Under the pieces are notes generated by a model. That model did no database searches. It had not been told where the DNA came from and was given only the letters and a program-made list of their open reading frames with translations. A DNA stretch of 64,000 nt, taken from assembly GCA_963514005.1 (NCBI GenBank), contig OY740783.1:129890001-129954000 (forward strand), in the 5' to 3' direction. Origin of the DNA: Raja brachyura. Lineage: Eukaryota. Of the stretch, positions 7,307-63,813 are shown one piece after another. The translations under genes and the position numbers were made by a program. Numbering within the stretch: position 1 is the stretch's first letter; each line of letters starts with the position of its first letter.

Positions 7307-7367
7307 ATGTGCTCTCTCCGAGTTTGTCTCTGCACCGTCCTGCTCTCCGTCTCAGTCCACGGTTACC
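7307..7367 (+). CDS. Exon 1, signal peptide [20 protein letters not shown]
   Basis: ATG in a gcgATGt context, 20-aa hydrophobic leader, phase-1 donor GTGAGT at 7368, in a non-repeat island. The link to exon 2 across 18 kb is inferred. Confidence 0.75.
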
Positions 7368-13300: not shown

Positions 13301-16300
13301 GTTTTTTACACCACTAGATGATCGCCCCTCAGCCTCCTGCGCTCCAAGGAATAGAGTCCTAGCCTGCCCGACCTTTCTCTACACCTCAGGCTCTCAAGTC
13401 GTGACATCATCCTTGTAAATCTTCCCTGCGCTCTTTCCAGCTGAAGGCATCCTTCCAGTATCAGGCAGACCATAATAGTGAGATTAAACGAGAACTTACC
13501 TGTTCGAAGTTTGATCTTTATTTTATGAGGAGTTACGATGAGGGATTACGTGAAGAAGCCCCGCCTGGCGCTGGATCAGCATACTTCAAAGCAGCGGCAT
13601 GAAAAACACAGAACCAATAGCCGGAGTAAAATAGTAAGGCTCAAAATAGACTAGAACTACCAGATGATCATTTATATTATGAGGGTTGGGAGTGGAGGGC
13701 ACGTAATCCCTCATCGTAACTCCTCATAAAATAAAGATCAAACTTCGAACAGGTAAGTTCTCGTTTAATCTCACTATTTTACTTCGGAGTCACGTGAGTG
13801 ACTACGTGAAGATTTTAAAGCTCTGTGTTTTCCATGTCGTAAATTCATTTCATACAACTCTCTGTTTGGTCAAAATAGTAGTGAGTAAAAAGTATTTTAA
13901 CACATTGTTATAATTTATGTAATAAGTCCTTTAATTATAAAAAAGAACAACTTTTTTAATAATAATAATAACCCCTCTATCGCAGGGGAAAATGACAAAA
14001 TAATTGATAAATTATGTCAATGGTAACATAAATCGATAATATAAATCGATAATATAAACAAAGCAAGCATTTAAAGAGAACCCAGTACTGCGTGTCCAAA
14101 TCCTGGCACCGTGACAACAGGTTTATTGTAGAACTTTGAAAAAGTTTCTTCTCTAGACCACCCTGCGGCCTCTAAAATTTGATCGAGTGGTACGTCCTGT
14201 ACCTTCGCCGCGGACGTAGCTGCCGCCCTAGTGGAGTGAGATTTAAACACATCAGTGTCTATTCCTGCTAGACCCAAAACCTGTTTTAACCATCTAGAAA
14301 TGGTTTGAACTGAAACTTTTGTATGTGGTTTTTTGTGTGTTATCAATAACGCTTTCTCAGAACCTCTGAGATTTTTGGTTAACTCCATGTATTGAGTTAA
14401 ATGCTTAACTACACACAATGTTTCATCAATAGGATATGCTTTAAACATTACCTTCATTCCAGTTCTCCCTGGTCTGCTTTGTTTGATTAAGTCATAAACA
14501 TAAAACACAATGTTATCTGAAGTCACATGCATGCAATCCAACCTTAACAATTGCAAAGTTTGTACTCTTTGAGCTGATACCAATGCCATTAACATAACCA
14601 CCTTGAATGTTAAGTTCTGCAAAGACATTGAATTAATTGGAGTCCATTGTTGAAGCAAAGTGAGAACAATACTAACATCCCAAATTTCTGTATATCTGGG
14701 CTTGGGAGGATTTTTATTAAAAATACCTTTCATGAATCGGGATACTAATGGGTGAGACCCAACTGAATCCCGATCCGAAATTTGTCCTAAATAGGATGAC
14801 AATGCACTCCGAGCACAATTAATGGCACTATAACTCAAATGCTCATCAAACTGTAACCCAGCAAGGAACTCCAATACATTTGAAATGTTTGCAGAATGAT
14901 AAGATATCTTTGACTGTGTACAAAAGGCTTCCCATTTCCTTATATGCGTCATATATTGTTTTTTAGTGCTAGTCCTCCAAGCTGCATCTATAACATCCAT
15001 GGTCCTGTCCGACAGTTCAAACTCTTGCAATGGTCTGGTCAGAACCTGCAGATTAACAAATTAATATGATCATGCAATGGATGAATTTCTTTTGTTACTG
15101 GTTGTGTCAACAGATTGTCGCAACTGGGAATTGTCATACATGGTTCAATAATCATTTCTAGCATCAATGGGAACCATGACTGCGTAGGCCAATTTGGCAC
15201 CACCAAAATGCCTTTGGCAGCGTCTTGCGCTATTTTCTTGAGACATTGCCCAATGAGACAGAATGGGGGAAAAGCATAAAAGAACATATTCCCCCAGTGT
15301 AGCGAGAAAGCATCCACCGCTACTGCCCCTGGATCGTGTTCCCAAGACACGTATTTCGGCAATTGGTGATTCAATCTAGATGCAAACAGATCAATGTCCG
15401 GTACTCCATACCGACTGACAATATTTTTGAAAATTTGTGGATTTAACATCCATTCTGTATTGTCTTTAAATATTCGTGATCTTTTGTCTGTCATAACATT
15501 GTCTCTCCCTGGGAGATAAATAGCTGAAAGCCCAATATTTTTTGCAATACACCATTGCCACATCTGGTTACCAGATGATCACATGAAATTGATCTGACAC
15601 CACCCATGTGATTGATATATGCCACAGCTGTGGTATAATCTATTTGTACTTGGACATGCAAATCCTTTAATGAAGAGCAATAAGCTTTTAATCCATAAAA
15701 TGCTCCCACTAGCTCCAAATAATTAATACCATATGTTTGGAGCAACAAATCCTCTTGGACAGCCCATCTGCCTCCACAGCTGGTCTCATTGTCCATAGCC
15801 CCCCATCCGAGAGAACTTGCGTCAGTTTGTAAAACCACGACTGGCTGATGAACTAAAATGTTCTTAGCAGCTTGTGGAACATTCTCAATCCACCAATGTA
15901 ATTCTGATAAAGCTTCCTTAGGCAATTGCATTGGCCTATCAAAATGGCCTGCTCGCTGAACTAGCGCTTTAGTTTTTGCCCTCTGAAGATTTTGGTAATG
16001 TAAACGACCAAATTCTACTGCTGGAAATGCTGCTACCAATTTACCAATACCCTTGGCAACCTCTCGGATGGAGGGATAAGGTTTGTTAAGCAGGTTTTGA
16101 CACACATTTGTCAAATCTAACTCCTTATCCATTAGTAAAGTTACCAACATAGTAACTGAGTTAATCACAAACCCCAGATATTCAATGGTTTGGGATGGCT
16201 GTAACTTAGACTTTGTTGGATGGATCAGAAAACCCAACTTCTCAAACAAGCTAATAGTTGCTGAGACTGATTTTCCAGCTGATTCCTGATTAGCATTGAC

Positions 16301-19300
16301 AATTAAAATGTCATCTAGATAAGCCATAACGATGTGTTTTTGTGCCCTAAGCAGTGCAAGTGCTGGCTTTAACAATTTAGTGAACAATCTAGGTGCTGAA
16401 CTTAATCCATTAGGCAAAGCTTTGTATTGCCACAGCTGTCCCATCCATTTAAACTTTAAATACCTGCGAAAATTATGATGAATTGGGACCGAATAATATG
16501 CATCCTTCAAGTCTATTGTAGCCATATAACAGCCTGTTGATACCAACTGCATTGCAGTGTAGAAAGTGTCCATTTTAAAATGTTTATACTTGACAAATGT
16601 ATTCAAAAATGTGAGATCTAAAATAATCCTACAACCCCCATCTTTCTTTGGTCTGGGGAAAATGTTTGATATAATTTGTTGTGGATCCTCTCCTGTTTTC
16701 TCGATAACTCCTTTTTTACTCAAATTCTTAATTTCTTTGTCCATTTGATTTGTCTCAAACTCTGAGAACCTCAAAGGATGACTAGGCTCATTTTGTCCCA
16801 ATGGAACCATACCTTCCACAAAATCAATGGTAGATCCTAGTACAGTGTCTAATACCACACGATCAACTGTAATACTGTCCCATTCCTTATAAAACATTTG
16901 GAGTCTACCACCAATCTGTGGCTCATCCCAGCATTCCTCTTTAATAGGATAATGTTTATGTACCTCTCCAACTGGACGAAATGATCTTCTTTTCCCAATG
17001 AATGGGTGTACATTCGGCTGTGTTGGCTGGAAATTTTTCCTTATCATACTCCTGCCTCGGCTTGTACCAGCTCCAAAATCAAATCTCTTCCTCGTATAGC
17101 CAGTCCATCTCTGGCCAAAGTTGAAGGGTTTCATACGACCAAGAGTCTTTGCCTCTTCATCTATTTCTTTAATTTGTTTAGACAAATCCTCTCCGAACAA
17201 AAAACCAGGAGTTTGAACATTGCTTGGTTTACACAATCCTGCAAATCTTGGATGTAACAGAGGTCGAATGGCAATCTTCCTCATACAATTTATCTCAAAA
17301 AATGAGTTGCAAAATAAGGCCAACATATGTTTCTGCACTTTGGTCATTCCACAACCTTCCACTTGTCTGCCAAGTGCAGTAATGCCAGCTGAAATCAGCT
17401 TGAGGACTCTTTGAAATCGAATTTCCTGCGCCCGCATAATTGATGACATTGGCGCCCAAACAACCGGATTCACCGTAGGTACCTTCAATGAGGCACAATT
17501 GATAGGTGTTTTATACATTTCTGCTGTCTCAACCATAACAGCATCTTGAAGCGGGTGAGAGACCATATAATTAATATTGGCCGCCAGGTTATCTTCCATG
17601 GCCTCACCGCCTCCTCCAGGTATTGCAAAATCTTGTGCCACATCAGGCACACCTGGAGCCATATAATTGTATTGTGGTGTGTACTCCGGACCACAATCAC
17701 CACTTTCAGGGTCTGTCTCATACAGCCCTGGTACTCCTGAAACTTGTTCAAAGGAGACTTCCTCCAGTCCATACCCAGGCACTGGAGTTTCAAATTCCCA
17801 ATTCGAATTGGCACCATATTCACGATATGGAACCCCCTCAGGGGCTGCCTGGGAATATTCTGGGTTCTTAGACCCTTGGTTGATAATAGTTTGGAGCATT
17901 TTCTCCATTTGGTCCATTCTGAGCCATAAGGCTTTTCTTTCTGGACCTTCAGAATCAGAGTCCTCAGAAACCCCAGGCCCTTCAGCTTTTCTTTTACTTT
18001 TTTTTTAGGCACTGGGATTTCCTCTACAGTTTCTGTTTGTGGAGCAATCAAAGCCTCACTAACGGGTGTTTCAACGGCCACCGGTATCGGAACCGGCTCC
18101 ACAATAATCTGCTGTCCCGACTCCTCTGCACCCTGGGACGCACGTTTTACCCGCTGTTTTTTGGCCTTCTCCATTTTGTTTTTTACTAACTCCTCCTGGT
18201 TTACCCACCAGGCTACGGAGTTCTGGAACCTCGCCCTAAATTTTTGTAAAACTCTCTTACCTGCGGGCTGGTTCCTTACCGCTGTGTGGAGCTGCGCTCT
18301 GCAGCTCTTTCGCTGCCGACAGCTACGACGTAATGCCGATCCAGCGCCAGGCGGGGCTTCTTCACGTAGTCACTCACGTGACTCCGAAGTAAAATTGAAC
18401 ACAATACTCCAAATGTGGCCTCACCAACGTGTTGCGACTCCCAACTTCTGTACTCAATACAAGTCAAGTCAAGTGAGTTTATTGTCATGTGTCCCAGATA
18501 GGACAATGACATTCTTGCATTGCTGCAGCACAACAGAATATTGTAGGCATAAATTCAGATCAGTGTGTCCATATACCATGGAATATATATGTACACACAC
18601 AAATAAACAGATAAAGTGCGATAGGCTGTTATAGTTCAGAGTTTGTTTGAAGTTGTGTTTAATAGTCTGATGGCTGTGGGGGAGCAGCTGTTCCTGAACC
18701 TGGATGTTGCAGTCTTCAGGCTCCTGTATCTTCTACCTGATGGCTGTGGAGAGATGAGTGTGTGGCCAGGATGGTGTGGGTCCTTGATGATGCTGCCAGC
18801 CTTTTTGAGGCAGCGATTGGGATAGATCCCTTTGATGGAAGGGAGGTCAGAGCCGATGATGGACTGGGCAGTGGTTACAGCTTTCTGCAGTCTTTTCCAA
18901 TCCTGGATGCTCAAGGGTCTGTCCCACTTTCCCGAGTTACTCACAAATTCTCGCAAGTTTTCCCCTTGATACAAACTCGGAGAATTACGGTAATAGCCAC
19001 CCGTAGGTACTCGGGTCTATTTTTTTTTTACTTGTGGACATTTTTCAACATGCTGAAAAAACGTCCCAATTTATCGACTCCATCCCCTATTCCCAATTCC
19101 TCCGTCTACGCCGCATCTGCTCCCAGGATGAGGTGTTCCACACCAGGTCATCACAAATGTCCTCATTCTTCAGAGTACGGGGATTCCCCTCCCCCATTAT
19201 AGATGAGGCTCGCACCAGGGTCTCCTCCATACCCCGCAACACTGCCCTCTCTCCCCATTCCCCCACTCACAACAAGAGCAGAGTCCCCCTGGTCCTCACC

Positions 19301-25300: not shown

Positions 25301-28300
25301 GTGTTTCTTCCCCTGTTGTTCTATTATTCACCTCTCTCTTCCCCCCTCTCTCTCTCTCCAGGCTTTTCGCACGATGGTTGGACAATGTCCGGTGCTGATG
25401 AGGTATCTGCGATGGAAGGGGCCTCTGCTGTGTTGCCGTGTACATTCACCTACCCACCCAATGGTGGCAACGTCACCGGCTCCGTGTTGTGGCACAACAA
25501 GTTGCCATTAGAGGCTCTCAGCCTTGTGTTTAAATGCACATATGCCGGTCCCGGCCGCCCCCGATGTGATGAAGTGACACAGAAGGCCGGAGGAGGTCGG
25601 TTCAAATTCGTGGGGAACCTCCCAGAGGGAGATGCCTCGATAATGGTGGAGCCGCTGAGAAAGAAGGACAGGAATAGTTACCGGTGCCGCGTGGAGCTCA
25701 CTGTTGGGGGTTTTCAATCTGTGATTCTCACGCAGCTGACTGTGGAAGGTGAGAACAATGTTCAGAAACTGTCGCTGCATCTTGTAGGGTCGGTGGGGGC
25801 GCTGCAAGCCGGCAGCCCCGTCAGCAGTGTGTTAGTCATTTCAACTTTTTTTATTTTTTTAGTGTGTTTTAAAGTGTGTTTTTTATGTTTCTTTGTGTGT
25901 CTTGTGTGGGGGGGATGAGGGGGAAACCGTTTCGGTCGCCTCCTTCACAGAGAGGCAACTTTTTCCAGGTCGCCTCCCGGTGGGCGAACAACAAGGATCG
26001 AGCGGCCTTTCCCGGAGACGCGCCCGGGGGTTCAGCGGCGGGCGCAGCGTGGACACTCGGCGGGGAGCAGGGGAGCAGGTGAGCCGTCGCCGGAGGGGAG
26101 CGCTCCGTTTCGCTGGTCCACGGCAGCCAGCAGCCTGAAGCCGCGGTCTGCAGAGCTCCAGCTGGCGCGGAGTCCGCAGCCTGGGATCCCCCCCGTTGGG
26201 AACCCGGGAGAAGAAGAAGCTCTCACCGCCGGCCCGCAGCCATCTTCTACCGCGGGCCCGGCGTGGACTAACCATCAGGAGTGGGGTCCCTCGCCTGGGA
26301 CCCCTGGAGGGGAGCTCCGACCGCCAGCCCTGCGGTCTGTGGTGCTTCTGGCTGCGGCGCGGCGGGAACTTTAAATCTTCGACCGCCGGCCTGCGGCCAA
26401 CACCAACCTGATGCCACGGTGTCTGGTGGGGAAGAGACGATTCTGGACTTACCTGGACTTTTACCTGCCTCGACATCTGGACGCCCGTAGCGGCGGCTGC
26501 GGAGGGTTGAGGTCCCGACCACGGGGGGAAATGGAGGAGGACTGGCCATTTTTTTTGCCTTCCACCACAGTGATGTATGCTGTGGTGGATGTTTGTGTTC
26601 AATTTTTAATGTGTTTTTGTGTGTTCTTTATCATTGTACCGCTGCTGACACATTCATTTCACTTGCACTTTGTGTGCAATGTGACGAATAAAACTGATTG
26701 ATTGATTGATTGTACAGTGAGTCATAGAGTTATACAGCATGGAAACAGGCCCTTCAGCCCAACTCATCCATGCTGACCCAGCTACACTAAACCGATTTGC
26801 CCATTATTTGACCCACATCCCTTTAAACCTTTTGTATCCGTGTGCCTGTCCAAATGTCTTTTAAATGTTGTTATAGTCCCTGCTTCAACTACCTCCTCTG
26901 GCAGCTCTCTCTATACATCCACCATGCTCTGTACCTTGAAGATTGAATACTCTAACCAAGTAGCCCTTGCATCCCCTCTCTCTCCATCCCTCCCCTACCC
27001 AAGCTTCAAAGTTGTCTTGTGTCTATCTTCAGAGTAAACCAGCATCAGGAACTGCAGATACTGGTTTACACTGAAGATAGACGTAAAATGCTGGAGTAAC
27101 TCAGCGGGACAGGCAGCATCTCTGGAGAGAAGGAATGGGTGATGTTTTTGGGTCGAGACACTTCTTCAGACAGAGTCAAGGGAGAGGGAGACACAAAGAT
27201 AATGAAGTGTAAGGTGTGAAAAGGAGACATCAAAGAGGATAAGTTCAAGGAAAATGTAAAATAGATCATTGTTAGCTAGAAGGAGGTGCCAATGTGCCGA
27301 AAGTCTTTTTGACCACCTTATCTACCTGCGACTCGACCTTCAAGGAACCATGCACCTGTACTCCAAGATCCCTCTGCTACACAACACTCCCCAGAGGCCC
27401 ACCATTCACTCTTCAGGTCCTGCCCTTGTTAGACTTCCCAAATTTAGAAAGGGCTGCAAGGAAAAGCCTGCAAACTACAATCCAATGAGCTTAACATATT
27501 TGGTAGGCAAGTTACTGGAGAGTATTCTGAGGTATAAGATATGTATTTGGATAGACAGGGACTGATTAAGGAGAGTCAGCATGGTTTTGTACGTGGGAGA
27601 TTGTCTCACAAATCAGATCGAGTTTTTTGGAGAGGCACCCAACAAGGTTGACGAGGCCAAATCCGTAAACGTTGCCTCTGTGGACTTCAGCAAGTCATTT
27701 AGTAAGGCTCCACTTGACAATAGACAATAGGTGCAGGAGTAGACCATTCAGCCCTTCGAGCCAGCACCGCCATTCAATGTGATCATGGCTGATCATCCAC
27801 AATCAGTACCCCGTTCCTGTATTCTCCCCATATTCCCTGACTCCGCTATCTTTAAGAGTCCTATCTGGCTCTCTTGAAAGTATTCAGAGAACCGACCTCC
27901 ACTGCCCTCTGAAGCAGAGAATTCCACAGCCTCACAACTCACTGAGAAAATGTGTTTCCTCGTCTCCATTCTAAATGGCTTACCCCTTATTCTTAAACTG
28001 TGGCCCCTGGTTCTGGACTCCCCCAACATCGGGAAAATATTTCCTGCCTCTAGCTTGTCCAAACCCCTAATAATCATATAGGTTTCAATAGGATACCCTA
28101 AATTCGAGGGTATACACGCCCAGCCGTTGCATTCTCTCAGCATATGACTGTCCTGCCATTCCGGGAATTAACCTTGTAAACCTTTGCTACACTCACTCAA
28201 TAGCAAGAATGTCCTTCCTCAAATTAGGGGACCAAAACTGCACACAATATTCCAGGTGTGGTCTCACTAGGGCCCTGTACAACTGCAGAAGGACCTCTTT

Positions 28301-31300: not shown

Positions 31301-34300
31301 GCTTTTAACTGTTCTAGATCACAGCTTTTGATTTAAGTCAATTGAAAGGCAATGGGGAACAAGATGCTAATTTCCGAGTATGAAAATAGTCATAACTTTC
31401 TTAATACTGAAGATATGAAAGTGAATTAGGTGTCAAATTAAACTTCTTGTTATGCTTTTTCTAATGGGATAAATTGCAGACTTGATTTTAAAAATCTCAA
31501 AATTTTGTAACATTGCTACAGTATACACCTCCCTTCTCGCACCACTTGTAATTGGCCCTGACCTTACTCCCTTATCTCTTCTCGAACTTTCCTTCCCATT
31601 AATTTGAGAATCTTTTTTAATTTTTCCCTTCCCCTTCAACTCCACCTTTATACTCCCAATTTGTCAATCCTTCCCCCCCACTATTTAGTTTAAACCCACA
31701 CGTGTAGCCCTAGCAAACCTGCCTGCCAGAATGTCGGTCCCCCTCCAGTTAAGGTGTAACCCGTCCCATTTGTGCAGGTCACCCCAACCCCAGAAGAGAT
31801 CCCAGTGGTCTATACATCTAAATTCTTGCTCCCTGCACCAGCCCCTCAGCCACACATTCAGATCCCCTATCTCCCTGTTCCTGTCCTCGCTAGCACGAGG
31901 TACTGGAAGCAATCCAGAGATGACCTGACGACTGACGACGTTACATTGACGACTGCTTTGGTGTCACCTCCTGCACCCAAGCACAACTGACTGACTTCAT
32001 CCATTTCACCACCAACTTCCACCCGGCACTCAAATACACTTGGACCATTTCCGACATTTCCCTACCATTCCTTGACCTCACCATCTCTATTGCAGGTGAT
32101 ACACTCCTGACTGACATCCACTACAAACCAACTGACTCCCACAGCTACCTGGACTACTCTTCCTCCCACCCTGCTTCCTGTAAGGACTCCATCCCCTATT
32201 CCCAATTCCTCCGTCTACGCCGCATCTGCTCCCAGGATGACGTGTTCCACACCAGGTCATCACAAATGTCCTCGTTCTTCAGAGAACGGGGTTTCCCCTC
32301 CCCCACTATAGATGAGGCTCACACCAGGGTCTCCTCCATACCCCGCAACACTGCCCTCTCTCCCCATTCCCCCACTCACAACAAGGGCCGAGTCCCCCTG
32401 GTCCTCACCTTTCACCCCACCAGCCAGCGCATATAACAAATAGTCCTCTGCCAGTTTCGCCACCTCCAACGTGACCCCTCCACTCGCCACATCTTCCCAT
32501 CTCCCCCCGTCTGCCTTCCGCAAAGACCGCTCCCTCCGCAACTCCCTCGTCAATTCTTCCCTTCCCTCCCGCTCCACTCCTTCCCCGGGCACTTTCCCTT
32601 GCACTGCAAGAGATGCTACACTTGTCCCTTCACCTCCCCCATCCACTCCTTTCAGGGACCCAAGCAGTCATTCCAAGTCCGACAGAGGTTCACCTGCACC
32701 TCCTCCAACCTCATCTACTGCATCCGTTGCTCCAGATGCCAGCTGATCTACATTGGTGAGACCAAGCGGAGGCTGGGCGATCGTTTCGCCGAACACTTCC
32801 GCTCGGTCCGCAATAACCAACCCGACCTCCCGGTGGCTCAGCACTTCAACTCCCCTTCCCATTCCGTATCCGACCTCTCGGTCCTGGGCCTCCTCCACGG
32901 CCAGAGTGAGCAACACCGCAAGTTGGAGGAACAGCACCTCGTATTCCGCCTGGGGAGTCTGCATCCTCTGGGCTTAAACATTGAATTTTCTCAATTCTGT
33001 TAACCCAGAATGCCCCCTCCCCCTCCCCACCTCTCCCTCAGCCCTCGGGCCCTGACATTCCTTCTCCATCTTCCCCCTCCCCCCCCCCCCCCACCCCAGT
33101 CGCACTAGTTTCTCATTTCCACACCACAAACAGCTTACAATGGCCTGCTTCCTTTATCATCAATACTTTTTTGCATATCTTTCATTCATTGTTCTTTATC
33201 TCTCCACATCACTGTCTATATCTCTCGTTTCCCTGATCCCTGACCAGTCTGAAGAAGGGTCTCGACCCGAAACGTCGCCTAGCTCCTTCGCTCCTTAGAT
33301 GCTGCTGCACCCGCTGAGTTTCTCCAGCTTTTTGTGTAACCCCAGAGATGACCAGCCTAGAAGTCCTGCTTTTCAGTCTTCATCCTAACTCTCCGAAGTC
33401 ATGTTGGAGAACCTCCTTCCTCTTCTTCCCCATGTCGTTTGTGCCTACGTGCACAACTACTGCCAGCTGTTCACCTTTTCTCTCGAGGATGTTCTGAATT
33501 TGGCTCGTGACATCCTGAACCCTGGCACCAGGGAGTCAATAGACCATCCTCACGTCTCATCTGCCACCACAGAATCTCCTGTCTGCTCCTCGGACAATGG
33601 AGTTACCCACCACTATGGCTTTGCCCAACGCCAGTTGCGTCCCATCTCTAAGATTTACGAGGATGTTGCCAGGACCTGAGCTAGAGGGAAAGGTTGGGCA
33701 GATTAGGACTTTATTCCATGCAGCGCAGGAAGATGAGGGGTGACCTTGCAGAGGTGTATAAGATCGTGACGGGAATAGATGGGGTAAATGCACAGAGCCT
33801 TCTGGCCAGAGTAGGGGAATCGAGAGGAGAAAGGTAGGAGAGGGGGGAAAGATTTAATAGGTACCTGAGGGGTAACTATTGTACACAAATGGGTTGGGTG
33901 TATAGAATGAGCTGCCAAAGGTGGTAGCTGAGGTAGGTATTATCGCAAGACATTTGGATAGGTACATGGATAGGAAATGTTAAAATGGCCAAACGCAGGC
34001 AGGTGGGACTAGTCTCGATGGGCATCTTGGTTGGCATGGGAAAGTTGGAATGCACTGCCAGGGGTGGTGGTGGAGGCAGATACTATAGTGGTGTTTAAGA
34101 GGCCTTTAGATAGGCACATGGATACGCAGGAAATGGAGGGATATGGATTGTGTGCAAGCAAAGAAGATCAATTTGATTTGGCTTCATGTTCGGCACAGAC
34201 ATTTTGGAACGAAGCATCCTCCTGTGCTGTACGGCTCGATGTTCCACGTTTTATAACATTCCCCACCTTTGTTATCAGATTCCACCCTCTACACCCTTTA

Positions 34301-37300
34301 GTCTTCCCCACTGAACATCTCCAGCCTTGGTCACTACCTCTACGCTTCTTCCATCACCTCATTCATCCCTCTCCTCACCAGGATCTATCTATCACTTGTC
34401 CAAAGTCTGAAGAAGGGTCTCCACCCAAAACATCACCCATTCCTTTTCTCCAGGGAAGCTGCCTGTCCTGCTGAGTTACTCCAGCATTTTGTGTCTACCT
34501 TCCATCTATCACTTGCCAGCTCTTGCACCACCACTCCCCTCACCTCTTTCTACAGCAATCTCCCCTCTACTCCGTCAGACTGAAGAAAGGAACCGATCCG
34601 AAAGGTCATCTGTCCATTTACCTCCCCGGATTGCTGGGGTCTTTTCACCACAACCCTCTGTCTATCAGTAAATTAGTTCTGAATCCAAATGGTCATGGCA
34701 CCATTAATCCTTCTGAGTCAGCCTACCATGAAGAGTGGCACGGTGGCACAGCGGTGGAGTTGCTGCCTCACAGCGCCAGAGACCCGGCTTCGATCCCGAC
34801 TACAGGTGCTGTCTGTTCTTTCGGTTTTTTCCGGGTGCTCAGATTTCCTGCCACACTCCAATAATCTGCAGGTTTGCAGGTTAATTGGCTTCTGTAAATT
34901 ATCCCTAGTGCGTGTAAGGTAGTGTTAAGCCCCTGTCCCACTTAGGAAACCTGAACGGAAACCTCTGGTGAGCTTGCCCGCGACGCAAGGTTTCCACGAG
35001 GTCGCCGGAGGTTTTGGTCACTCTCTCTAATGGTCGAAAGTGGTTTCCGCTTGGTCAAGGCTTCATCTAGGTTGCTTCGATTGTTTCAACAAAATCAAAA
35101 CCAGCCTCGACTAAAAATAGGTTGCTGTTTTAAAAATTAATAATTTTTTAGTCGCAGGTCTATTCGAAGCCGGTTTTCTTCACAGTCGAGGAAGGTTTTC
35201 AACATATGTGTGGGAGGTGGTAGAAGGTTGCAGGTCACCTCGACCTTGATTTTTTGTTTGGGTGGCGGGCAAGGTCTCCAGAGGTTGCTGTTTAGGTCTT
35301 GTCAGTGGGACAGGGGCTTAAAGGGGCTTAAAAGGTCTCCCGAGTGGGATGATTGCTGGTCGGCACGGACTCGGAGGGCCGAAAGTCCTGCTTCCACGCT
35401 GTATCTTTAAACTCAAATAGCATAAAAGATGCTGCCTGACCCGCTGAGTCCCTCCAGCACTTTCTTTTTTGCTGATGATTCCAGCATCTTCAGTTCCTTG
35501 AGTCTACAAGTTTGGCTGGTTGGGTTCTCTGGGGCAGTTTTTAAGCCTCGAATTTTTCCCCGATAAGTTGGTTGATTGCGGTCGGCGAGGTTCAACTGAT
35601 GCATTCCGGTGTCTGTCCTTCCCTCAGCGCCCGGCGGGAATGTCTCAGTGGTGACTGGGACTGTGGGAGGTTCGGCCACGTTACCCTGTGTGTATCAGCA
35701 ACCCCAGCGTTACCGCAGCGTCCTCACGGTCACATGGATGAGGAAGGATCCCTACCGACACATCGTCACGTTCACACACAAAGCTGATGGATCCTGGGCG
35801 GTGGAGAACGGAGCAACTCGGTTCGAGCTGGTCGGGGACCCAGAGCTGGGAAACGTCTCAACCAGGATAAACCAGCTGAGTGTGGAGGACAGTGACGGCT
35901 ACCAGTGTCTGGTGGAGTTCAGCAAACCGGAATACTACGATGCGACAAAGGACGTCGACGCACATTTGAGGAGCAGCGTACACCCCCCGTACACCCATCA
36001 GTACCAGCGTGAGGTCCGGCTCCAGGTCCAGCAGCCGCTCGCACCCGGTAAGAAACCATCGCCACGTTCTGCCGTGTGGAGCGAAGGTCAATAGTTTGCC
36101 TGAACCCCACCCCACCCCCACACATGTGCCGTTCAGTGTAGCTTCCTCTCCCGTGCCCGGACCCTTGCGCTGAATGCCGTGTGTGTCACTCCCAGAGTCA
36201 GACCGACTGACGGAGTCCGAACCAGTGAGTCGTTATTCATAGAGTTGTAGAGAGTCACAGAGTCCCAGGTCCTTCTGCCCATCTTGCCCACGCCGACCAA
36301 CATGCCCCATCAACACTAGTCCCGCCTGTCCACATTTGGCCCATATCCTTCTAAACTTATCCTCCCCAAGAACCTGTCTAAATGTCTCTTAAATGTTGCA
36401 AGAATCCCTGCCTCAACCACCTCCTCCTGCGGCTCTTTCCTTACACCCACCAATCTTTGTGTAAAAAAAGTTACCCCTCAGATTCCTATTAAATCTTTCC
36501 CGCCTCACCTTAAATCTATGTCAGGTGGTTCTGGATTCCCCAACTCTGGACAAAAGACTGTGTGTGTTTACCCGATCTATTCCTCTCATGATTTTTATAC
36601 ACCTCTATAAGATCGCCCCTCATCCTCCTGCGCTCCAAGGAATAATGTCCTAGCCTGCTCAACGTCTCCCTACAGCTCAGCATGTCAAGTCACATCCTTG
36701 GCAACACCCTTGTAAATCATCTCTGCATCCTTTCCAGCTTGACAGCATCGTTCAAGTTCAAATGTATTTGTCACGTGCACCATAAGGTGCAGTGAAATGT
36801 GATTTACCATGCAGTGTTACAATTAAAAAAGGACATAGTACACAATGTAATTCAACACACATCCACCACAGCATTCTTCACTGTGGTGGAAGGCAATACT
36901 GTTCAGACAGTCCCGTACATGGTGACCAAAACTGAACACAATATTCCAAATGTGGCCTCTCCTATGTCTTATACAACAGTAACATATCCTCCCAACTTCC
37001 ATACTCAATACTCTGACTGATGAAGACCAATGTGCCAAAAGCCTTTATGATCACCCTATCATCGGCTGATATTCAATCACGGCTGATCTGTCTTTCCCTC
37101 TCAACCCCATTCTCCTGCCTTCTCCCCATAACCCCTGATACCAAAACCAGTCAAGAATCTATGAATCTCCGCCTTAATAAATATTCATTGACTTGGCCCC
37201 CATGCCCGTCTGTGGTAATGAATTCCACAGATTCACTACCCTGTTACTCACGAAATATCGCCTCAACTCCTTCCTAAAGGTACATTATTTTATTCTCAGG

Positions 37301-40300
37301 CTATGGCCTCTGATCCCAGACTCTCCCACTAGTGGAAACATCATCTCCACATCCATTCTATCCAGGTCATTCACCATTCGGTGAGTTCCCCCCCTCATCC
37401 TCAACTCCAGCAAGTACAGACCCAGTGCCGTTCTAACGTTCATCATATGTTAACCCAATGAATAAGTTTATGAATGAATAAATGAATGAAGGAATTAGTT
37501 TATTGGCCAAGTATTCACATACAAAGAATTTGCCTTGGTGCTCCGCCCGCAAGTGACAACATGACATGCAGTGACAATTAAGAATGATACATAAAACATT
37601 AAACATTAATAATAAATAATTCCTGGGATCATTCTCTTAAACCCCCTCTGGACCCTTTCCAGAGCCAGCACATCCTTCCTCAGATATGGGGCCTAACATT
37701 ACTCACAATGCTCCAAATGCGATCTGACCAGTGCCTTGCAGAGCATTCCATCCCTGTTTTTGTATTATAGTCCTCTCAAAATAAATGCTAGCATTGCATT
37801 TTCCTTCCTTACTACCCATTCAACATGCGGATTAATGTTTTGGGAAACCTGCACCAACACTCCCAAGACCCTTTACATCTCTGGTCATTCAGTCAAGTCC
37901 AATGTCCGCTATGGTGTAGAGGTGACTCGGATAGTACCCTATCTCATGGAAGGACTGTTCAGACAGTGCATCTTATCCCTCAGAATACTGTCTCATAACT
38001 TTCTGACCACAGATAGTTAGACTCACAGCACTGTCATTCCCAGGATTTTCCCAGCCACCCTTCTTAAACAGAGGCACAACATTTGCCACCCTCCAGTCTC
38101 GTCATTTACGGCAGCACGGTGGCGCATCGGTAGAGTTACTGCTCTACAGTGCCGGAGACCCGGGTTCGATCCAGACTATGGGTGCTGTCTGAGCGGAGTT
38201 TGTACGTTCTCCCCGTGACCTGCGTGGGTTTTCTCCAAGATCTTTAGTTTCCTCCCCACACTGCAAAGACGTACAGGTTTGTAGGTTAATTGGCTTGGTA
38301 TAAATGTAAAACATTGTCCCTAATGTGTGTGTAGGACCGTGTTAATGATGTCCATGTGGACTCGACGGGACGAAGGGCCTGTTTCCACGCTGTATCTCTA
38401 AAATAAATAAAACTAAATTTAGATCATTTACCTTAATTCACAAGCAAGTTAGAAATGGCGTTCCCACATACGAGTTATTTGATGGATCATCATTGATCAT
38501 ATGTTAAGGCCGGGTGTGAACACATGGGCCTACTGATCTCCCGGTCTTCACTGCTCTTTTTTTACAGTGACACCAACAGTGACACCAACAGTGACATCAA
38601 CGTACATCCTGCTCATTCTGATTGCCCTCCTCATGCTCTGCATCCTGCTCATTATTATTCTCTGGAAGAAAGGAGGTGAGTTGACCTACAAATAAGCCAT
38701 TGCAATTCTCTGTCTGCTATCGATTATTATTGTTCCTTGCACCGGGATGCAGAGATCAGCTTTGCTTATGTGCTGGGGGTTACACAAAAAGCTGGAGAAA
38801 CTCAGCGGGTGCAGCAGCATCAAAGGAGCGAAGGAGATAGGCGACGTTTCGGGTCGAGACAGACAGCATTTTCTTCAGACAGCATTTGCTTATGTGCTAT
38901 CGTTTGTCTTTAATTGGACGTCGCACTTCACGCTGGCTCGGCAAGACCACCGGCATAATCAAGGACCGGTGGGTGGGGGGGGAGGAAGAGTGGGTGAGGG
39001 GGGGGGGGGGGGTGAGGGGGGGGGGGAAGTGGGTGAGGGTGGGGAGTGGGTGAGGGTGGGGAGTGGGTGAGGGGAGACAGTGTGTGAGGGGAGACAGTGT
39101 GTTGGGGGGGGAGAATGGGTGTGTGAGGGGGGGGAGTGGGTGAGGGGGAGCAAGTGGGTGAGGGGGGGGAGTGGGTGAGGGGGGAGAGTGGGTGAGGGGG
39201 GGGGAAGAGTGGGTGGGGGGGAGTGGGTGAGGGGTTGGAGATTGCCTTTGGGCTGTAACTTTGATGAATCTTTATTATTCTACATTTGTTATACAATGTG
39301 GATGTCAGCCATTACCTTAATCTTTTCTCATCTCTTTATTCCTGCAGTGTTTTCATCCGTAATGAGGTCAGCCACATTTTCAAAAAGGTAAGAGGGGACA
39401 TGAATCCAAGGCTAAGCGGGGTGGCACGGTGGCGCAGCGGGTAGAGCTGCTGCCTCACAGCGCCAGAGACCCGGGTTCGATCCTGACTACGGGTGCCGTC
39501 TGTACGGAGTTTGTACGTTCTCCTCGTGACCGCGTGGGTTTTCTCCGGGTGCTACGGTTTCCTCACACACTCCAAATACGTACGGCGTTGTAGGATAATA
39601 GGCTTCTCTGCATTGTAAATTGTCCCTAGTAGAGTGAGTAGGATAGTGCTCGTGTACTGCCGATCGCTGGTCGGTGCTGACTCGCTGGGCCGAAGGGCCT
39701 GTTTCCACGCTGTGTGACTAAACTAAAGTGTAAAGTCTAGCATCGCACATTTCCACACTGGGTAAAAAGGTTTTGACAGTCTACCATATCCATACCTCTC
39801 ATTATTGTACATCATACAGGTGTATGGGTTTGTAGGTTAATTGGTTGGTAAAATTGTAAACTGTCCCTACTGCGTAGGGTAGTGCTAGTGTACAGCATGG
39901 ACTCGGTGGGCCGAAAGGCCTGTTTCCGCACTGTATCTCCGAAGTAAAATTTCATATACTCACTGTGGTAAGCACCCTCTGAGATCTGTGGTGTGAGCAG
40001 GAAGTTGAGATGCGCGGATTGCCATGAGATTTCCTGGGCGTTTGATGCAATTTCCTCACGTTGGTTCCTCTCTCTGTAGGAGCGCTGTGAGTCCGGATGT
40101 CACTGGCCGAGGGGCACAGCTGCAGTGTGATTCAGGTACTGAGCGAGCACCTTCTACCCTGCCCAAGGCAGCAAGCAGACCAAAACCAACAGGAGGGCTG
40201 CAGGTAGCAAATGGAGGGTGGAGACAGTACGGGACTGCACACGAGGAAATGCAGATGCTGGTTTGCAAAATAAAATACACAAAGTGCTAGAACAACTGAG

Positions 40301-43300: not shown

Positions 43301-46300
43301 CAGTTCCTTACAAGAAGGGTCCCAAGTGCTGGTTAACAAAAAAGAGACACTTAGTGCTGGAGTAACTCAGCGGTTCAGGCAGCTTCTCTGGAGATCAAAG
43401 CTATTTAGGGGCAGCACATGGTGGTGCAGCTGTAGAGTTGCATCCTCACAGCGCCAGAGACCCGGGTTCCATCTTGATTATGGGTGCTGTCTGTACAAAG
43501 TTTGTCCGTTCTCCCTGTGACCACACACGTGGTTCAGGAGCCTACTTCAGATACTTCGGGTTGGGGCCAGAGCTGAAACGTCACCTATCCACATTCTCCA
43601 GAGATGCTGCCTGACCCGCTGAGTTACTCCAGCACTCTGTGAAACGTCACCTATCCATGTTCTCCACAGATGCTGCCTGACCCGCTGAGTTACTCCAGCA
43701 CTCTGTGAAACGTCACCTATCCATGTTCTCCACAGATGCTGCCTGACCCTCTCTCTCTCCCTCTCCCTCGTTTGAAGGAGTAACTCTCGTGTGCTTTACA
43801 GATCAGGCTGAGTCCAGCACGTACGCCAGCATTATCATCAACAGTGGAAAAGCGAAGAAGCCGCAGGCAGATGATGAAGGTACACACCTTGCTCACAGTC
43901 ATAGAGTGATACAGCGTGGAAACAGACCGCTTGGCCCAACTAGCCCACACCGGCCAACATGTTCCAGCTACACTAGTCCCACCTGCCCATGTTTGGTCCA
44001 TATCCCTCCAAACCTGTCCTAAAAAATGGGTTCCAATCCCACTTCTGACACCATGTTGAGTGATGACCAAACAATAACAGAAGGCTTGCACCAAGATAAA
44101 GATCCAAAGACTTTATTAACTACATAGCAAGCATGACTTCACACTTCCACGTTCAACTTACAATAAAGGAATCCAGCGTGCAGTTATAACTGAAAAGCTA
44201 GTGGGCGTAACTACATGACTCATGAAATGAGTGACACTAATCTACACCCATGTACCTGTCTGAATGTTTCTTAAATGTTGGGATAGTCCCAGCCTCAACT
44301 ACCTCCTCTGGCAGCTCGTTCCATACACCCACCACCCTGTGTGTGAAAAAGTTACCCCTCAAATACCTATTAAATCTTTTCCCCTTCACCTTCAACCTAT
44401 GTCCTATGGTCCTTGATTCACCAACTCTGGGCAAGAGACTCCGTGCGATTACCCGATCTATTCCTCTCAACACCAAGTCCCACATCCCTCACAGTTCGAC
44501 TGGTTGACTAATGGCACATTCTCCTTTACCTCCAGGTGCGCAGAAACCTGAAGCTGCAAACTCAGGTGAGAATGATTCTGTTCCTACTTTACGTTAGTTG
44601 AGTTTAGAGATACAGCGTGGAAACAGGCCCTTCCGCTCACCGTGCCCGCACCGACCAGCGATCCCCGCACATTAACACTACCCTACACTAGGGGACAATT
44701 TTTACATTTAGACCAAGCCAGTTAACCTACAAGCCTGTACGTCTTTGGAGGGTGGGAGGAAACCGAAGATCTCGGAGAAAACCCACGCAGGTCACGGGGA
44801 GAACGTACAAACTCCGTACAGACAGAACCCATAGATGAGCTCGAACCTGGGTCTCCAGCGCTGCATTCACTGTAAGGCAGCAACTCTACCGCTGCGCCAC
44901 CGTGACTTTAGAGATACAGCGTGGAAATGGGCCCTTTGGCCCACAGAGTCCGTGCCAACCAGCGATCACCCTGTACGCTAGCACCATCTTACACACTAGG
45001 GACAATTTACAATCTGACCAACCAACCTAATCAAGAACATATTAATCTCCACCATAGATATATCGATCGACTTGCCCTCCCCCAGCCGTCTATGGCAATG
45101 AATTCCACAGATTCACTACCCTCTGACACATGTCTCTTTCTATTCATGTGTGTGTCTGTAAATTACTGTGTCAAGATTTCACTTATTCACGGGAACAGCA
45201 ATCAGATCAGGTAAAGTGTTGGCACAAGGAACTGCAGATGCTGGTTTACAAACAAGTGCTGGATTAACTCAGTGGGTCAGGCGTCATCCCTGGAGAACAC
45301 GGATGGATAACATTTCCGGTCAGTTCCCACTGAAGGTTCAGGCTCAGGTTTATTATTGTCATGTGTACCGAGGTACGGTGAAAAGCTATGGCTTTGTGTG
45401 CTTTCCAGAACGTAAATATAATCAGTTGAAGCTCAAGTGCAATAGGCTGAGCTAAGGGGAAGATACAGAGTGCAGAGCACTTGAGATCGACTGCGGGGAA
45501 CAAAGGCGGGCGGGCGAAGTGAGGGACGGGGCATCCAAGGAAGGAGACGGCTGGAGGCCCACAACAGCCTGGGACTCACCTGGAACAGGTTCCTAGCATC
45601 TGCACTGGCGCATGGACGCTGAAAATGGTGGGCTGGCAGTTGACTCACGGCTATTCCTTGAAATTCCATTTCAAGCAGGGTGCAAGGCCACCAAATTCCA
45701 GTGCAGTTTCTTACCACTTCAAGCAGTGTGCAAGGCCACCAAATTCAAGTGCAGTGTCATACAACTTCAAACAGGGTGCAAGGCCACCAAATTCAAGTGC
45801 AATTTCATACCATTTGAAGCAGGCTGCAAGGCCACTAAAGACAGCAAGTCGTGACCTCTCCCTCCTCCATCGTGCAGAGACTGAGCCACGCCCACACTTC
45901 TGGGTTTTATAGTCCCTTCCCCCCTCCCATCAGAAGGGGCATGGCCTTCATGGTGTGATTGACAGGAGAGAGACTCTCAACATTTTTTAAACACTAATAA
46001 CTTTTATTTTTCACCGATGGGAAAAGTCTTTGGCACCTGATGAGCGGAGGGGGACTCAGAGTAAGTTGGCCAAAAATCACAGCCATACGTGGTAGCGTTT
46101 TTTCTAAAATCAATGTAAAGCGCAAACAGGAAGTGGTCAAGATTAGACTTTTAATTATAGAGAAGGCAAGGCAACTTTAATTAGGCAAGGCAACTTTAAG
46201 TAGGCAAGGGAACTTTAATTAGGCAAGGCAACTTTAATTAGGCAACACAGCTTTAGCATTGCCAAACCAAAGGCAACACAGCGCTAGCATTTCCAAACCA

Positions 46301-49300
46301 AAGGCAACACAGGTTTAGCATTTCCAAACCAAAGGCAACACAGCCTTCGCATTTCCAAACTATATTTTCAAACCACATTAAGGGCACTGACAGGTCAGTA
46401 AAACCACTCACAGTTTAGTAGACATGTGTTCAGTGTTATTCACAGCTCAGACTGAGAGACGTGACCCTCTCGCTCCCACATCTTGCAGAGACTGACTGAG
46501 ACATTCAACACTTCCGTGTTTTATAGTCCCTTCAGAAGGGGCATGGCCTTCAGAGGAGAAAATCTCAACATTTTTAAAACACTGATAACTCTTTTATTTT
46601 TCATCGATGGGAAAAATCCTCTTGTCCTGCGCAGCGGAGGGGAACTCTGAGTAAGATGGCCAAAAATCACAGCCGTAAGTGGCAGTGTTTTTTCTAAAAT
46701 CAATATACAGAACAACAGGAAATGGTCAAGATCAGACATTTAGTAATATCGATGTTCTCCAGAGATGCTGCCTGACCCGCTGAGTTACTCCAGCACTCTG
46801 TGAAACGTCACCTATCCATGTTCTCCACAGATGCTGCCTGACCCGCTGAGTTACTCCAGCACTCTGTGAAACGTCACCTATCCATGTTCTCCACAGATGC
46901 TGCCTGACCCGCTGAGTTACTCCAGCACCTTGGCTCGTGTATATGCGCCTCTCTCTCTCTCTGTAGTTTGAAGGAGTAACTCTCGTGTGCTTTACAGATC
47001 AGGCTGAATCCTGCACGTACGCCAGCATTATCATCAACAGTGGAAAAGTGAAAAAGCCGCAGGCAGATGATGAAGGTACACACCGTGCTCACAGTCATAG
47101 AGTGATACAGCGTGGAAACCATGTTGAGTGATGACCAAACAATAACAGAAGCCTTGCACCAAGATAAAGATCCAAAGACTTTATTAACTACATAGCAAGC
47201 ATGACTTCACACTTGCACGTTCAACTTACACTAAAGGAATCCAGCATGCAGTTATAACTGAAAAGCTAGTGGGCGTAACTACAGAAGCATGACTCATGAA
47301 ATGAGTGACACTAATTTACACCCATGTACCTGTCTGAATGTTTGTTAAATGTTGGGATAGTCCCAGCCTCAACTACCTCCTCTGGCAGCTCGTTCCATAC
47401 ACCCACCACCCTGTGTGTGAAAAAGTTACCCCTCAAATTCCTATTAAATCTTTTCCCCTTCACCTTCAACCTATGTCCTACGGTCCTTGATTCACCACCT
47501 CTGGGCAAGAGACTCTGTGCGTCTACCCAATCTATTCCTCTCAACACCAATTTCCACATCCCTCACAGTTCGACTGGTTGACTAATGGCACATTCTCCTT
47601 TACTTCCAGGTGCGCAGAAACCTGAAGCTGCAAACTCAGGTGAGAATGATTCTGTTCCTACTTTACGTTAGTTGAGTTTAGAGATACAGCGTGGAAACAG
47701 GCCCTTCCGCTCACCGTGCCCGCACCGACCAGCGATCCCCGCACATTAACACTACCCTACACTAGGGGACAATTTTGACATTAAAGGGCCCGTCCCACAT
47801 GGCCATCATTTGCGCGCCATTAACGCGATCTGGTAGCCTGTGGGTAACGTGGGACGGGCGCATGGAGTGACGTGGAGGAGTGTGGATCCAGATCCGCCGC
47901 ATTCCTACTCCCAGAGCGGGGTCAAGACGATTGAAGATCGACACAAAATGCAGGAGTAACTCAGCGGGACCGGCAGCATCTCTGGAGAGAAGGAATGAGT
48001 GGCGTTTTGGGTCGAGACCCTTCTTCAGACTGAAAAAGAGTCTTGACCAGAAACATCATCCATCTTCAAATGACGTCACGCGCTCCAGACGGCTGTGCGG
48101 GCACATGATGACGCGTGTCAGTCACTACCTGTCACGTAAATGACGGCCAAGTGGGACAGGCCCTTTAGACCAAGCCAGTTAACCTACAAACCTGCACGTC
48201 TTTGGAGTGTGGGAGGAAACCGAAAATGTCAGAGAAAACCAACGCAGGTCACGGGGAGAATGTAGAAACTCCGTACAGATAGCACCCATAGTCGAGATCG
48301 AACCCGGGTCTCGAATCCATTCAGCCCTTCGAGCCATTCAATATGATCATGGCTGATTATTCAAAATCAGTACCCCGTTCCTGTTTTCTCCCCGTATACC
48401 TTGATTCCATTAGCCCTAAGAGCTATATCTGACTCTCTTGAATATATCCAGTGAATTGGCCTCCACTGCCTTCATAGATTCACAACTCTCTGGGTGAAAA
48501 AGCCTTTCATCTCAGTCCTAAATAGCCAACCCCTTATTCAAGCGAATACAAGCCCAGTCGACCCATTCTTTCGTCATATGTCTGTCCCACAATCCCAGGA
48601 ATTAACCTGGTGAACCTAAACTGCACTCCCTCAACAGCAAGAATGTCCTTCCACAAATTAGGAGACCAAAATTGCACACAATACTCCAAGTGCGGTCTCA
48701 CCTGGGTCCTGTACAACTGCAGTAGGACCTCCTTGCTCCGAAACTCAAATCCTCTCTCAATAAAGGCCCACATGCCAGTAGCTTTCTCCACTGCCTGCTG
48801 TACCTGCATGCTTACTTTCAGTGACTGATGTACAAGAACACCCAAGTCTCATTGCACCTCCACTTCTCCTAATCTGGCACCATTCAGATAATAATCTGCC
48901 TTCCTGTTTTTGCCACCAAAGTGGATAACCTCATATTTATCCACATGATACTGCATTTGCCATGCATCTGCCCACTCAGTCAACCTATCCAAGTCACCCT
49001 GCAGCCTCATAGCATCCTCCTCGCAGCTCACACTGCCACCCAGATTTGTGTCATCCGCAAACTTGGAGATGTCACATTTAATTCCCTCGTCTAAATTGTT
49101 AATATATATTGTAAATAACTGGGTCCCAGCACTGAGCCTTGCGGTACCGCACTGGTCACTGCCTGCCACTCTGAAAAGGACCCGTTAATTCCTATTCTTT
49201 GCTTCCTGCCTGCCAACCAGTTCTCTATCCATGTCAATACCCTACCCACAATACCATGTGCTCTAATTTTACCCACTAATCTCTTGTGTGGGACCTTGTC

Positions 49301-58972: not shown

Positions 58973-59717
58973 AAGTGTCGTGATAATACCCGTCTCGACA
59001 ACCTCCTCCAGCAGCTCCTTATACAATATATTGTTGAGGCTGCGTTTGGAGTATTGTGGTCAGTTTTTTGTGTTCAGCTTTTGTCATCCTGCAGCAGGAA
59101 AGACGTGGTTACATAGGGAAGGATGCAGAGAAGATTTACGATGATGCTGCCAGGATTCAAGGAGCCCCAGCTTCAGGGAGAGGTTGGGCAGGTTAGGACT
59201 TTGCACCTTGGAACACAGAAGGATGAGGAGTGATCTTGGCGAGGTGTACAAAATCATGAGAGGAATAGATAAGGTGAACACACAGTCTTTACCCAGGGTA
59301 GGGGCATCAAGAAGGGGCACAGTCTTAGAATAAAGGCGAGTCCATTTAAGACTGAGGTGAGAAAAAACTTTTTCACCCAGAGAGTTGTGAATTTGTGGAA
59401 TTCCCTGCCACAGAGGGCAGTGGAGGCCAAATCACTGGATGGATTTAAGAGAGAGTTAGATAGAGCTCTAGGGACTGGTGGAATCAAGGGATATGGGGAG
59501 GAGGCAGGCACGGGTTATTGATTGGGGATGATCAGCCATGATCCTATTGAATGGCGGTGCTGCCTCAAAGGGTCGAATGGCCTCCTCCTGCACCTATTTT
59601 CTATGTTTGTAAGAACAGGGGACATAGGCTTAAGGTGTGGGGAGAAAGATTTAATAGAAATCTGAGGGTCAACTTTTTTACACAAAGGATGGTGGGTATA
59701 TAGAACAAGCTACCAGA

Positions 59718-62700: not shown

Positions 62701-63813
62701 CCAGGATTATTAGATGATTTGTTTAATTTGCACACAAATACAGAAAAATTAATAGCCTATATATATAACATAATTTTGGATAAGGAGAATCCGACAACTG
62801 AAACATATCGTCAAGCATGGGAGAATGAAATTGGTTTATCCATAACAAAAGAAAATTGGGAAGAAAGTTTACAGCAAATACATCGGTGTTCGTTAAATGC
62901 CGGACATACATTGATACAATTCAAAGTATTATATAGATTACATTATTCAAAAACTAAATTAAATAGTATCTTTCCCAATCTCTCTTCAATTTGTGATAAA
63001 TATAAGAATTTAGAAGCAAATTTAACACACAGTTTTGCTACATGTCCCAAATTGAATCACTACTGGACAGAAAATTTTAAGGTTATTTCTGAGGTTCTTA
63101 AAATTAGATTGGATCCAGACGCAAAGTTATTAATACTTGGAATTTTGGATTCAAATTCGGTACTTACAGTAAATCAAAGAAATTTATTTGATTACTGTTT
63201 GATAATAGGGAAAAAAATCATATTGAAATTTTGGAAGGGAACATTAACCCCCACAATTAAAATGTGGGCAGCAGAAATGTTGGAGACGTTACAATTAGAA
63301 AGAATCAGATTTGTCCTATTGGACAAATATAATACCTTCGAACAAATATGGTCTCCATATATACAGTATTTAGAGAAGTAGCTGTTCTTGACATCACAGC
63401 TTGACGGGTACCCTGCGGGACGATGAGAATAACATATTCTTATACTAGGATTAATAGGCATGTCTTCATTGATATTATTATTTTTTAATAGTTTTAGATA
63501 CAATATATTTTGTTGATTTTCATTTATATATATATAATATCTTTTCACTTTTTGTTAACCTTTTTTCCTTTCTCTATTTTCTTTTTCTCTTTTATATAAT
63601 CAAATTATTATTTAATCACTCTCTTATTGATTTAAAACTACTCTATCCTTATCTTTATTTCCTAAAAAAATAGAAGATAATAACTTTCAACGGGTTATTT
63701 AAAAAAAATATGGAATTAAGTTGATGTTTGTATATGTTTACACTATTGTAAATTGATTACTTCTAATAAAAGAAATTAAACAAGAGATTCATACAACTGC
63801 TAAAAAAAAAAAA
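59718..63813 (+). mobile_element. L1-clade LINE, truncated near the start of ORF2, with several stops/frameshifts, 3'UTR and poly(A)
   Basis: FLQETH, NIYAPN and GGDFN (APE). KAAGPDG, SLDAEKAFD and YADD (RT). AATAAA at 63765-63770 and an A-tail at 63802-63813. AT-rich, inserted in a CR1 fragment. Confidence 0.95.

Follow-up and report, generated by a model that had tools for sequence, protein, structure and literature searches.

A Siglec-15-like V-set exon in an ITIM-consensus gene of Raja brachyura and its place in a paired shark-and-ray receptor family

The gene and its splicing

The window (the whole analysed stretch, 64,000 nucleotides of Raja brachyura contig OY740783.1, here C3, positions 129,890,001 to 129,954,000) contains a gene of 11 GT-AG exons between 7307 and 52201. 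Its phases are consistent and it encodes an open protein of 440 amino acids, as derived from splice sites and from tblastn matches of skate homologs. The protein comprises a signal peptide, two V-set domains (V1 and V2), a short Thr-rich stalk, an uncharged transmembrane (TM) helix and a tail with the motifs STYASI, CTYASI and VIYAAV. Exon 1 (7307-7367, +) carries the start codon and signal peptide, shares 90-95% identity with ortholog N-termini and ends in a GT donor. Exon 2 (25362-25748, +) encodes V1, a Siglec-15-like V-set domain by Pfam, PDB sequence match and AlphaFold2 model. It is bordered by ag/GC...GAAG/gtgaga, with a polypyrimidine acceptor and a GT donor, and leads from phase 1 to phase 1; the reading frame is open from 25364, and a translation begun at 25362 hits stops. 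Exon 3 (35628-36047, +) encodes V2, a second V-set domain (E 1.7e-12) whose best PDB match is also Siglec-15; it splices onto the TM exon, has Leu in place of the F-strand Arg of V1 and lacks the extra Cys pair of that domain. Stalk and TM helix are found in exon 4 (38568-38675, +), the juxtamembrane tail in exon 5 (39348-39387, +) and further tail sequence in exon 6 (40080-40135, +). Exon 7 (43802-43879, +) contains the ITIM-consensus STYASI (43816-43833) and is followed by a 10-codon spacer in exon 8 (44536-44565, +), by exon 9 (46998-47075, +), a duplicate of exon 7 with the ITIM-like CTYASI, by the duplicate spacer in exon 10 (47610-47639, +) and by exon 11 (52167-52201, +) with the C-terminal ITIM-consensus VIYAAV (52169-52186) and the stop. 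STYASI and VIYAAV fit the ITIM consensus, provided that Ile is allowed at +3 for STYASI. The tail grew via duplication of a unit of Tyr exon plus spacer exon. A 96% identical duplicate (44047-44708 and 47114-47781) has the spacer exon inside.

The gene is spliced at the V1-V2 and V2-TM junctions in run X4, one public sample that is not on record as RNA. Contigs of this run cover the V2 exon and leave the flanking intron bins uncovered. One contig has 28 letters of the V1 end, below the 31-letter bar of the tool, directly before the V2 start, and another has the TM exon start directly after the V2 end; both junction strings match this gene exactly, once each. Besides the exons, the window contains a retroelement in intron 1 (14074-18004, -) whose ORFs encode reverse transcriptase and tyrosine recombinase, a layout of the DIRS type. 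A Penelope-like GIY-YIG fragment is located in intron 2 (31936-33000, +), and the gene is followed downstream by an L1-like element with reverse transcriptase (59704-63378, +).

Residues and fold of V1

V1 is assigned to the V-set by Pfam (E 2.4e-8). The best PDB sequence match is human Siglec-15 (7zoz, 50.3 bits, E 2e-12), followed by Siglec-8 (34.9 bits), and a profile of 10 paralogous V1 domains also finds Siglec-15 (63.5 bits) ahead of its runner-up (34 bits). Cys codons start at 25439 (LPC), 25535 (VFKC), 25565 (PRC) and 25685 (YRC). Counted along the PDB sequence alignment, the residues C26, C58, C68 and C108 of V1 correspond to C64, C95, C104 and C142 of Siglec-15. The B-strand Cys (25439-25441, +) equals C64, and its predicted partner is the F-strand Cys (25685-25687, C142). 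The extra pair (25535-25537 and 25565-25567, +) equals C95-C104, with a predicted disulfide, and is kept in 76/77 and 74/77 of the family V1 domains. The F-strand Arg (25688-25690, +, codon CGC), R109 of V1 and R130 of the precursor, aligns with R143, and the A-strand Trp W6 (25379-25381, +) with W44 in the same pairwise alignment; the G-strand Phe F117 (25712-25714, +) shares a MAFFT column with Y154. The codons of the Arg and the four cysteines read as the first-pass annotation gave them. Its proposal that essential Arg and extra Cys pair are Siglec-15 signatures holds at the level of alignment, the bond itself being a prediction, and the misalignment with the essential Siglec Arg that it named as a refutation is not what the alignment displays. 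According to PMC10264397, R143 of Siglec-15 forms a salt bridge with the carboxylate, W44 (the NHAc contact) and Y154 make CH-pi contacts, Y87 contacts O9 and C95-C104 is called a unique feature. The equivalent of Y87 is Leu49 in V1, and the FG loop is 3 residues shorter than in Siglec-15. The YxCR motif alone is not diagnostic, because the F strand also has an Arg in V domains of lamprey and hagfish, in a TIM-1-like protein of a frog and in PILR-like and CD33-like domains.

The AlphaFold2 model of V1 (pLDDT 81) has the extra cysteines on adjacent short strands (53-60 and 67-69). Superposition of such a model on Siglec-15 had been proposed as a check. Foldseek and VIA do put Siglec-15 at the top (Z 16.9, rmsd 2.0, 118 residues aligned), with MPZL1, SCN2B and P0 tied to it within 1 Z, so the fold alone does not mark out Siglec-15. 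NKp30 as nearest kin was rejected as the best match, a partial one of 22.6 bits over residues 8-47, and so was the TIM family (24.7 bits against 50.3 for Siglec-15).

Family membership and ancestry

Shark or ray proteins account for 36/36 matches to V1 in the first search and for the top 71 in a profile search of 1.84 billion representatives. The nearest domains belong to Leucoraja and Amblyraja, at 69-71% identity (98/85 support in the 83-row tree). Family members are of two types, both found across sharks and rays: one with an uncharged TM and mostly an ITIM tail, the other with a short tail and a TM lysine in an LGLK-type motif that mouse Siglec-15 shares. Over the two V domains, an ITIM member from the thorny skate is 67% identical to a TM-Lys member. 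The genome of R. brachyura contains 3 inhibitory-type genes (the window gene, C3:133.40 Mb and C3:129.84 Mb) and 7 TM-Lys genes with open V1, plus several broken copies. Tyr exons were looked for in the inhibitory-type gene at C3:129.84 Mb and not found. This nearest paralog (C3:129.837-129.868 Mb, 95% V1 identity, inhibitory-type TM) is possibly truncated. In the carpet-shark members P0001, P0004, P0025 and P0034, the V1 G strand contains a J-segment-like FGxG motif.

The profile search also reached Siglec-15-like domains of lungfish, coelacanth, gar, bowfin, salamander, teleost, bird and mammal, and a second chondrichthyan group of V-V-C2 layout. In a first tree of 83 rows, an MPZL-like row stood beside the family. 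The tree was rebuilt because this row had been pulled there as a long branch, and the 44-row version leaves out the 4 long rows and part of the redundant ones. Siglec-15-like domains and the family form one group in the 44-row tree (98/88), apart from a CD33/CD22-like group (99/93) and a PILR-like group (99/91); its rows were collected by similarity to V1, its group labels are partly ours, and mammalian CD33, PILR, NKp30 and MDIR rows are left out. The family (100/100) and canonical Siglec-15 (96/92) arise as separate branches from an unresolved base, which places V1 inside the broad Siglec-15-like clade and outside the canonical group. AU tests reject neither a grouping of the family with Siglec-15 (p 0.19) nor one with the PILR-like domains (p 0.066). 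The exon is part of a paired elasmobranch family with members of ITIM type and TM-Lys type, which lies within the broad Siglec-15-like clade.

With human Siglec-15 (7zoz), V1 has in common the V-set fold, the B-F and C'-C'' Cys pairs and the equivalents of R143, W44 and Y154, and the activating paralogs of the family share the TM Lys. The window gene differs in its V-V layout with no C2 domain, in its uncharged TM without Lys, in its ITIM motifs and in the absence of Y87; the family is multigene and paired, whereas Siglec-15 is a single conserved gene, and the neighbour is pikachurin in place of SLC14A. Judged on these features, the gene would work like a Siglec, yet it is set apart from canonical Siglec-15 by C2 domain, TM Lys and neighbourhood. 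Siglec-15 canonically lies next to SLC14A and EPG5. In R. brachyura, SLC14A and DYM are found on contig C1, and the window gene is located on C3, upstream of pikachurin; a tentative EPG5 ORF on C1, given no name by Pfam, Atlas or PDB, carries no weight here.

These data also bear on a reading that concerns ancestry only and is compatible with a sialic-acid-binding V1, namely that the family comprises the true Siglec-15 orthologs of the skate, moved from the SLC14A region and expanded, with a secondary ITIM tail. Two genome searches give no Siglec-15 match on C1, nor is there one within 200 kb after SLC14A. Mouse Siglec-15 as query returns a V1 exon of this family as its first genome match, a reciprocal best match, and paddlefish Siglec-15 a related C3 exon followed by family V1 exons; the LGLK motif common to the paralogs and mouse Siglec-15 points the same way, and the AU result for the family with Siglec-15 is compatible with it. 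Against it stand the position of V1 outside the canonical group, the V-C2-TM layout of other skate genes (C3:120.3-120.4 and 128.40 Mb), one of them with a TM Lys, and the ITIM-tailed Siglec-15-like receptors of salamanders, whose tails are weakly similar. We regard orthology in this strict sense as doubtful, if a serious candidate. The tail similarity between window gene and salamander receptors is weak (2/1000 and 5/1000 shuffles as high), as is that to coelacanth (30/1000); by the same shuffle comparison, likeness to sevengill V-V-C2, CD33-like, PILR-like and mouse Siglec-15 tails is weak or absent.

A second Siglec-15-like group on C3 (120.31-120.41 Mb and 128.40-128.41 Mb) has the layout V(n)-C2-TM and lacks the C'-C'' Cys pair. 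One member of this cluster, which adjoins UBA6, carries the TM Lys; an exon near C3:120.22 Mb is tentatively NAT8L-like and likewise carries no weight. Among Siglec-15-like receptors with Arg and C' Cys are ITIM-tailed V-V(-C2) proteins of salamanders and multi-V proteins of lungfish (P0072-P0074, P0121, P0137).

The F-strand arginine and its proposed ligand

The V1 row set consists of 77 unique family domains and 9 paralogs from this genome, with 3 near-identical rows collapsed to give 83. The Arg is present in 33/33 inhibitory-type, 17/35 TM-Lys and 11/15 unclassified rows, the set taking in isoforms and tandem copies or domains, with class set by pattern and 15 rows unclassified. In this genome it is kept in 3/3 inhibitory and 3/7 activating V1 exons; among the TM-Lys paralogs, the one at C3:128.957 Mb retains it and those at C1459:3.8 kb and C3:128.99 Mb lack it. 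The Arg column is the most asymmetric among the V1 columns scored, and F117 ranks fifth. Of 22 columns conserved at >=97% in inhibitory rows, 21 stay at >=93% in the activating rows once a divergent clade of 9 rows is set aside, so loss of the Arg (17/28 of these rows retain R109) does not reflect general decay. A tree built without the Arg column requires 9 changes. Outside the divergent clade, the 9 non-Arg groups are 7 activating, 2 unclassified and 0 inhibitory, which makes at least 7 separate losses confined to the activating type; with unambiguous branch lengths of 4.59 activating and 5.08 inhibitory, the chance of 7/7 on the activating side is roughly 0.005. An independent-pairs test of the asymmetry, underpowered, is never reversed and not significant (median p 0.25). 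Pooled dN/dS of 8 paralogs is 2.8 in the BC/CC' loops and 1.9 in the FG/G region, both of which flank the site, and 0.6 elsewhere, for regions picked after the variability was seen and paralog pairs that are not independent. As a family-wide pattern, the Arg asymmetry lends indirect support to the functional V1 site that the first-pass annotation had suggested.

The exon is the first V domain of an intact V1-V2-TM ITIM-consensus gene in a shark-and-ray Siglec-15-like paired family, and we consider it probable, on sequence grounds, that V1 binds host sialylated glycans via Arg109 and that the receptor signals inhibition. Our confidence goes no further because the motif is non-diagnostic and zebrafish Siglec-15, which retains Arg and cysteines, showed no strong binding to the glycans tested (PMC7226832, section 3.3.2). 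If V1 works as Siglec-15 does, R109 would salt-bridge the Neu5Ac carboxylate, W6 would pack against the N-acetyl group and F117 against glycerol C9. The edge formed by C' and C'' may be braced by the predicted C58-C68 disulfide, and V2 and stalk may serve as spacers. Which linkage and which underlying glycan are preferred may depend on the CC' and FG loops, which are variable. Ligand clustering would lead to phosphorylation of the tail tyrosines and recruitment of SHP-1/SHP-2. The TM-Lys paralogs, whose ectodomains are nearly identical, would associate with an adaptor of the DAP12 type and act as counter-receptors, in which the Arg for the self ligand would be dispensable. Recruitment of phosphatase and adaptor, and the cell type in which it would take place, we infer.

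The zebrafish result also favours the view that Arg and cysteines are an inherited framework, maintained by ancestry or gene conversion, with no sialic acid binding by V1 and the ligand site in the variable loops or V2. It is further consistent with the Arg in non-Siglec V domains and with the Met that paddlefish Siglec-15 has at this position. A mere framework is nevertheless difficult to reconcile with a CpG-containing CGC codon that underwent at least 9 changes across the family, none of them in an inhibitory-type row, and with the variation of the adjacent outward positions 107 and 111 in inhibitory rows (kept in 21/33 and 29/33); we judge it quite improbable.

Alternatively, Arg109 may read a self ligand other than plain sialic acid. 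Candidates are a sialyl-O-glycopeptide whose peptide is recognised too, in the manner of PILRα, some other anionic group or the surface of a protein. The Arg asymmetry points to a needed ligand and not to its identity, V1 lacks Y87 and differs in its FG loop, PILRα has the same CRVEL motif with a similar G strand by alignment, and the AU value for the PILR-like grouping fits as well. PILRα/PILRβ resemble the family in the CRVEL F strand, the pairing of ITIM and DAP12 types and the lack of a C2 domain, and differ in that V1 has a B-strand Cys which PILRα lacks in the alignment. PILR has a single V domain. This ligand is nonetheless unlikely in view of the PDB matches (50.3 bits for Siglec-15, 14.9 bits for PILR), of the separate PILR-like family in rays and this genome with its own group, and of the retention of W, R and aromatic residue in V1. 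According to PMC13358205, PILRα is part of a paired ITIM/DAP12 system and links sialic acid to ITIMs. PILR-like V domains of rays and this genome include L067 (on C944) and the proteins P0234, P0225 and P0291; in several rays, PILR-like genes and this family occur on contigs of equal length and hence likely share a chromosome.

The family has a counterpart in the paired CD33-related Siglecs (Siglec-5/14, Siglec-11/16), which likewise have ITIM and TM-charged partners with near-identical ectodomains. They differ in their V-domain lineage, in the C2 domains that the family lacks, and at the F strand, where the family has Cys and CD33-type V exons have Phe. Essential-Arg losses occur there as well, according to PMC6288428, which describes paired Siglecs as counter-traps; the primate losses it reports affect the inhibitory Siglec-5 and -12, while none is found among the inhibitory rows of this family. 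The multigene activating and inhibitory V-type Ig receptors of the clearnose skate (MDIR/CD300-type, PMC3031540) are a further parallel. By that description, MDIR are CD300/TREM/pIgR-like, whereas the best matches of V1 are Siglecs; the family may still coincide with an MDIR subfamily.

A spliced paired family with ITIMs in the Siglec-15 lineage would mean that the pairing of inhibitory and activating Siglecs evolved in another lineage as well, possibly earlier than the CD33-related pairs. In the literature, Siglec-15 counts as one of four conserved Siglecs and is classed as activating. Among the papers listed by full-text searches, no title or abstract reports this family or an ITIM-bearing Siglec-15 lineage; earlier work may nonetheless include shark members. 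More tentatively, and at somewhat less than even odds in our estimate, Siglec-15 may be the sole activating survivor of an ancient paired radiation: jawed-vertebrate ancestors would have had ITIM-bearing self-sialic-acid sensors of the Siglec-15 lineage, which salamanders would retain and sharks and rays would retain in expanded form. The distribution of the Arg would then reflect selection for self-sialic-acid recognition on inhibitory members, repeatedly dropped by activating partners. With Gln, Gly, His, Asn, Ser, Lys or Tyr in place of Arg, the family constitutes a natural mutant panel, by which the question of the ancient Siglec ligand is directly testable.

The first-pass annotation had further inferred that self-sialic-acid recognition would be coupled to ITIMs independently of the CD33-related Siglecs. 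A separate lineage in the trees and ITIM motifs in the same gene agree with the independence; the principle itself is not new, being known from CD22, fish MAG and PILRα, the former two with ITIMs. Fish are described as lacking inhibitory CD33-related Siglecs. In this genome, 27 of 39 matches to a shark protein with Siglec-5 and -7 as best PDB hits exceed 120 bits and lie on C50, C51, C36 and C1482, and the four CD33/Siglec-5-like V exons that were read contain YFFRVEF or YHFRIEF. V exons of this CD33/Siglec-5-like kind, with the essential Arg, form a large cluster on these contigs, despite the lack ascribed to fish.
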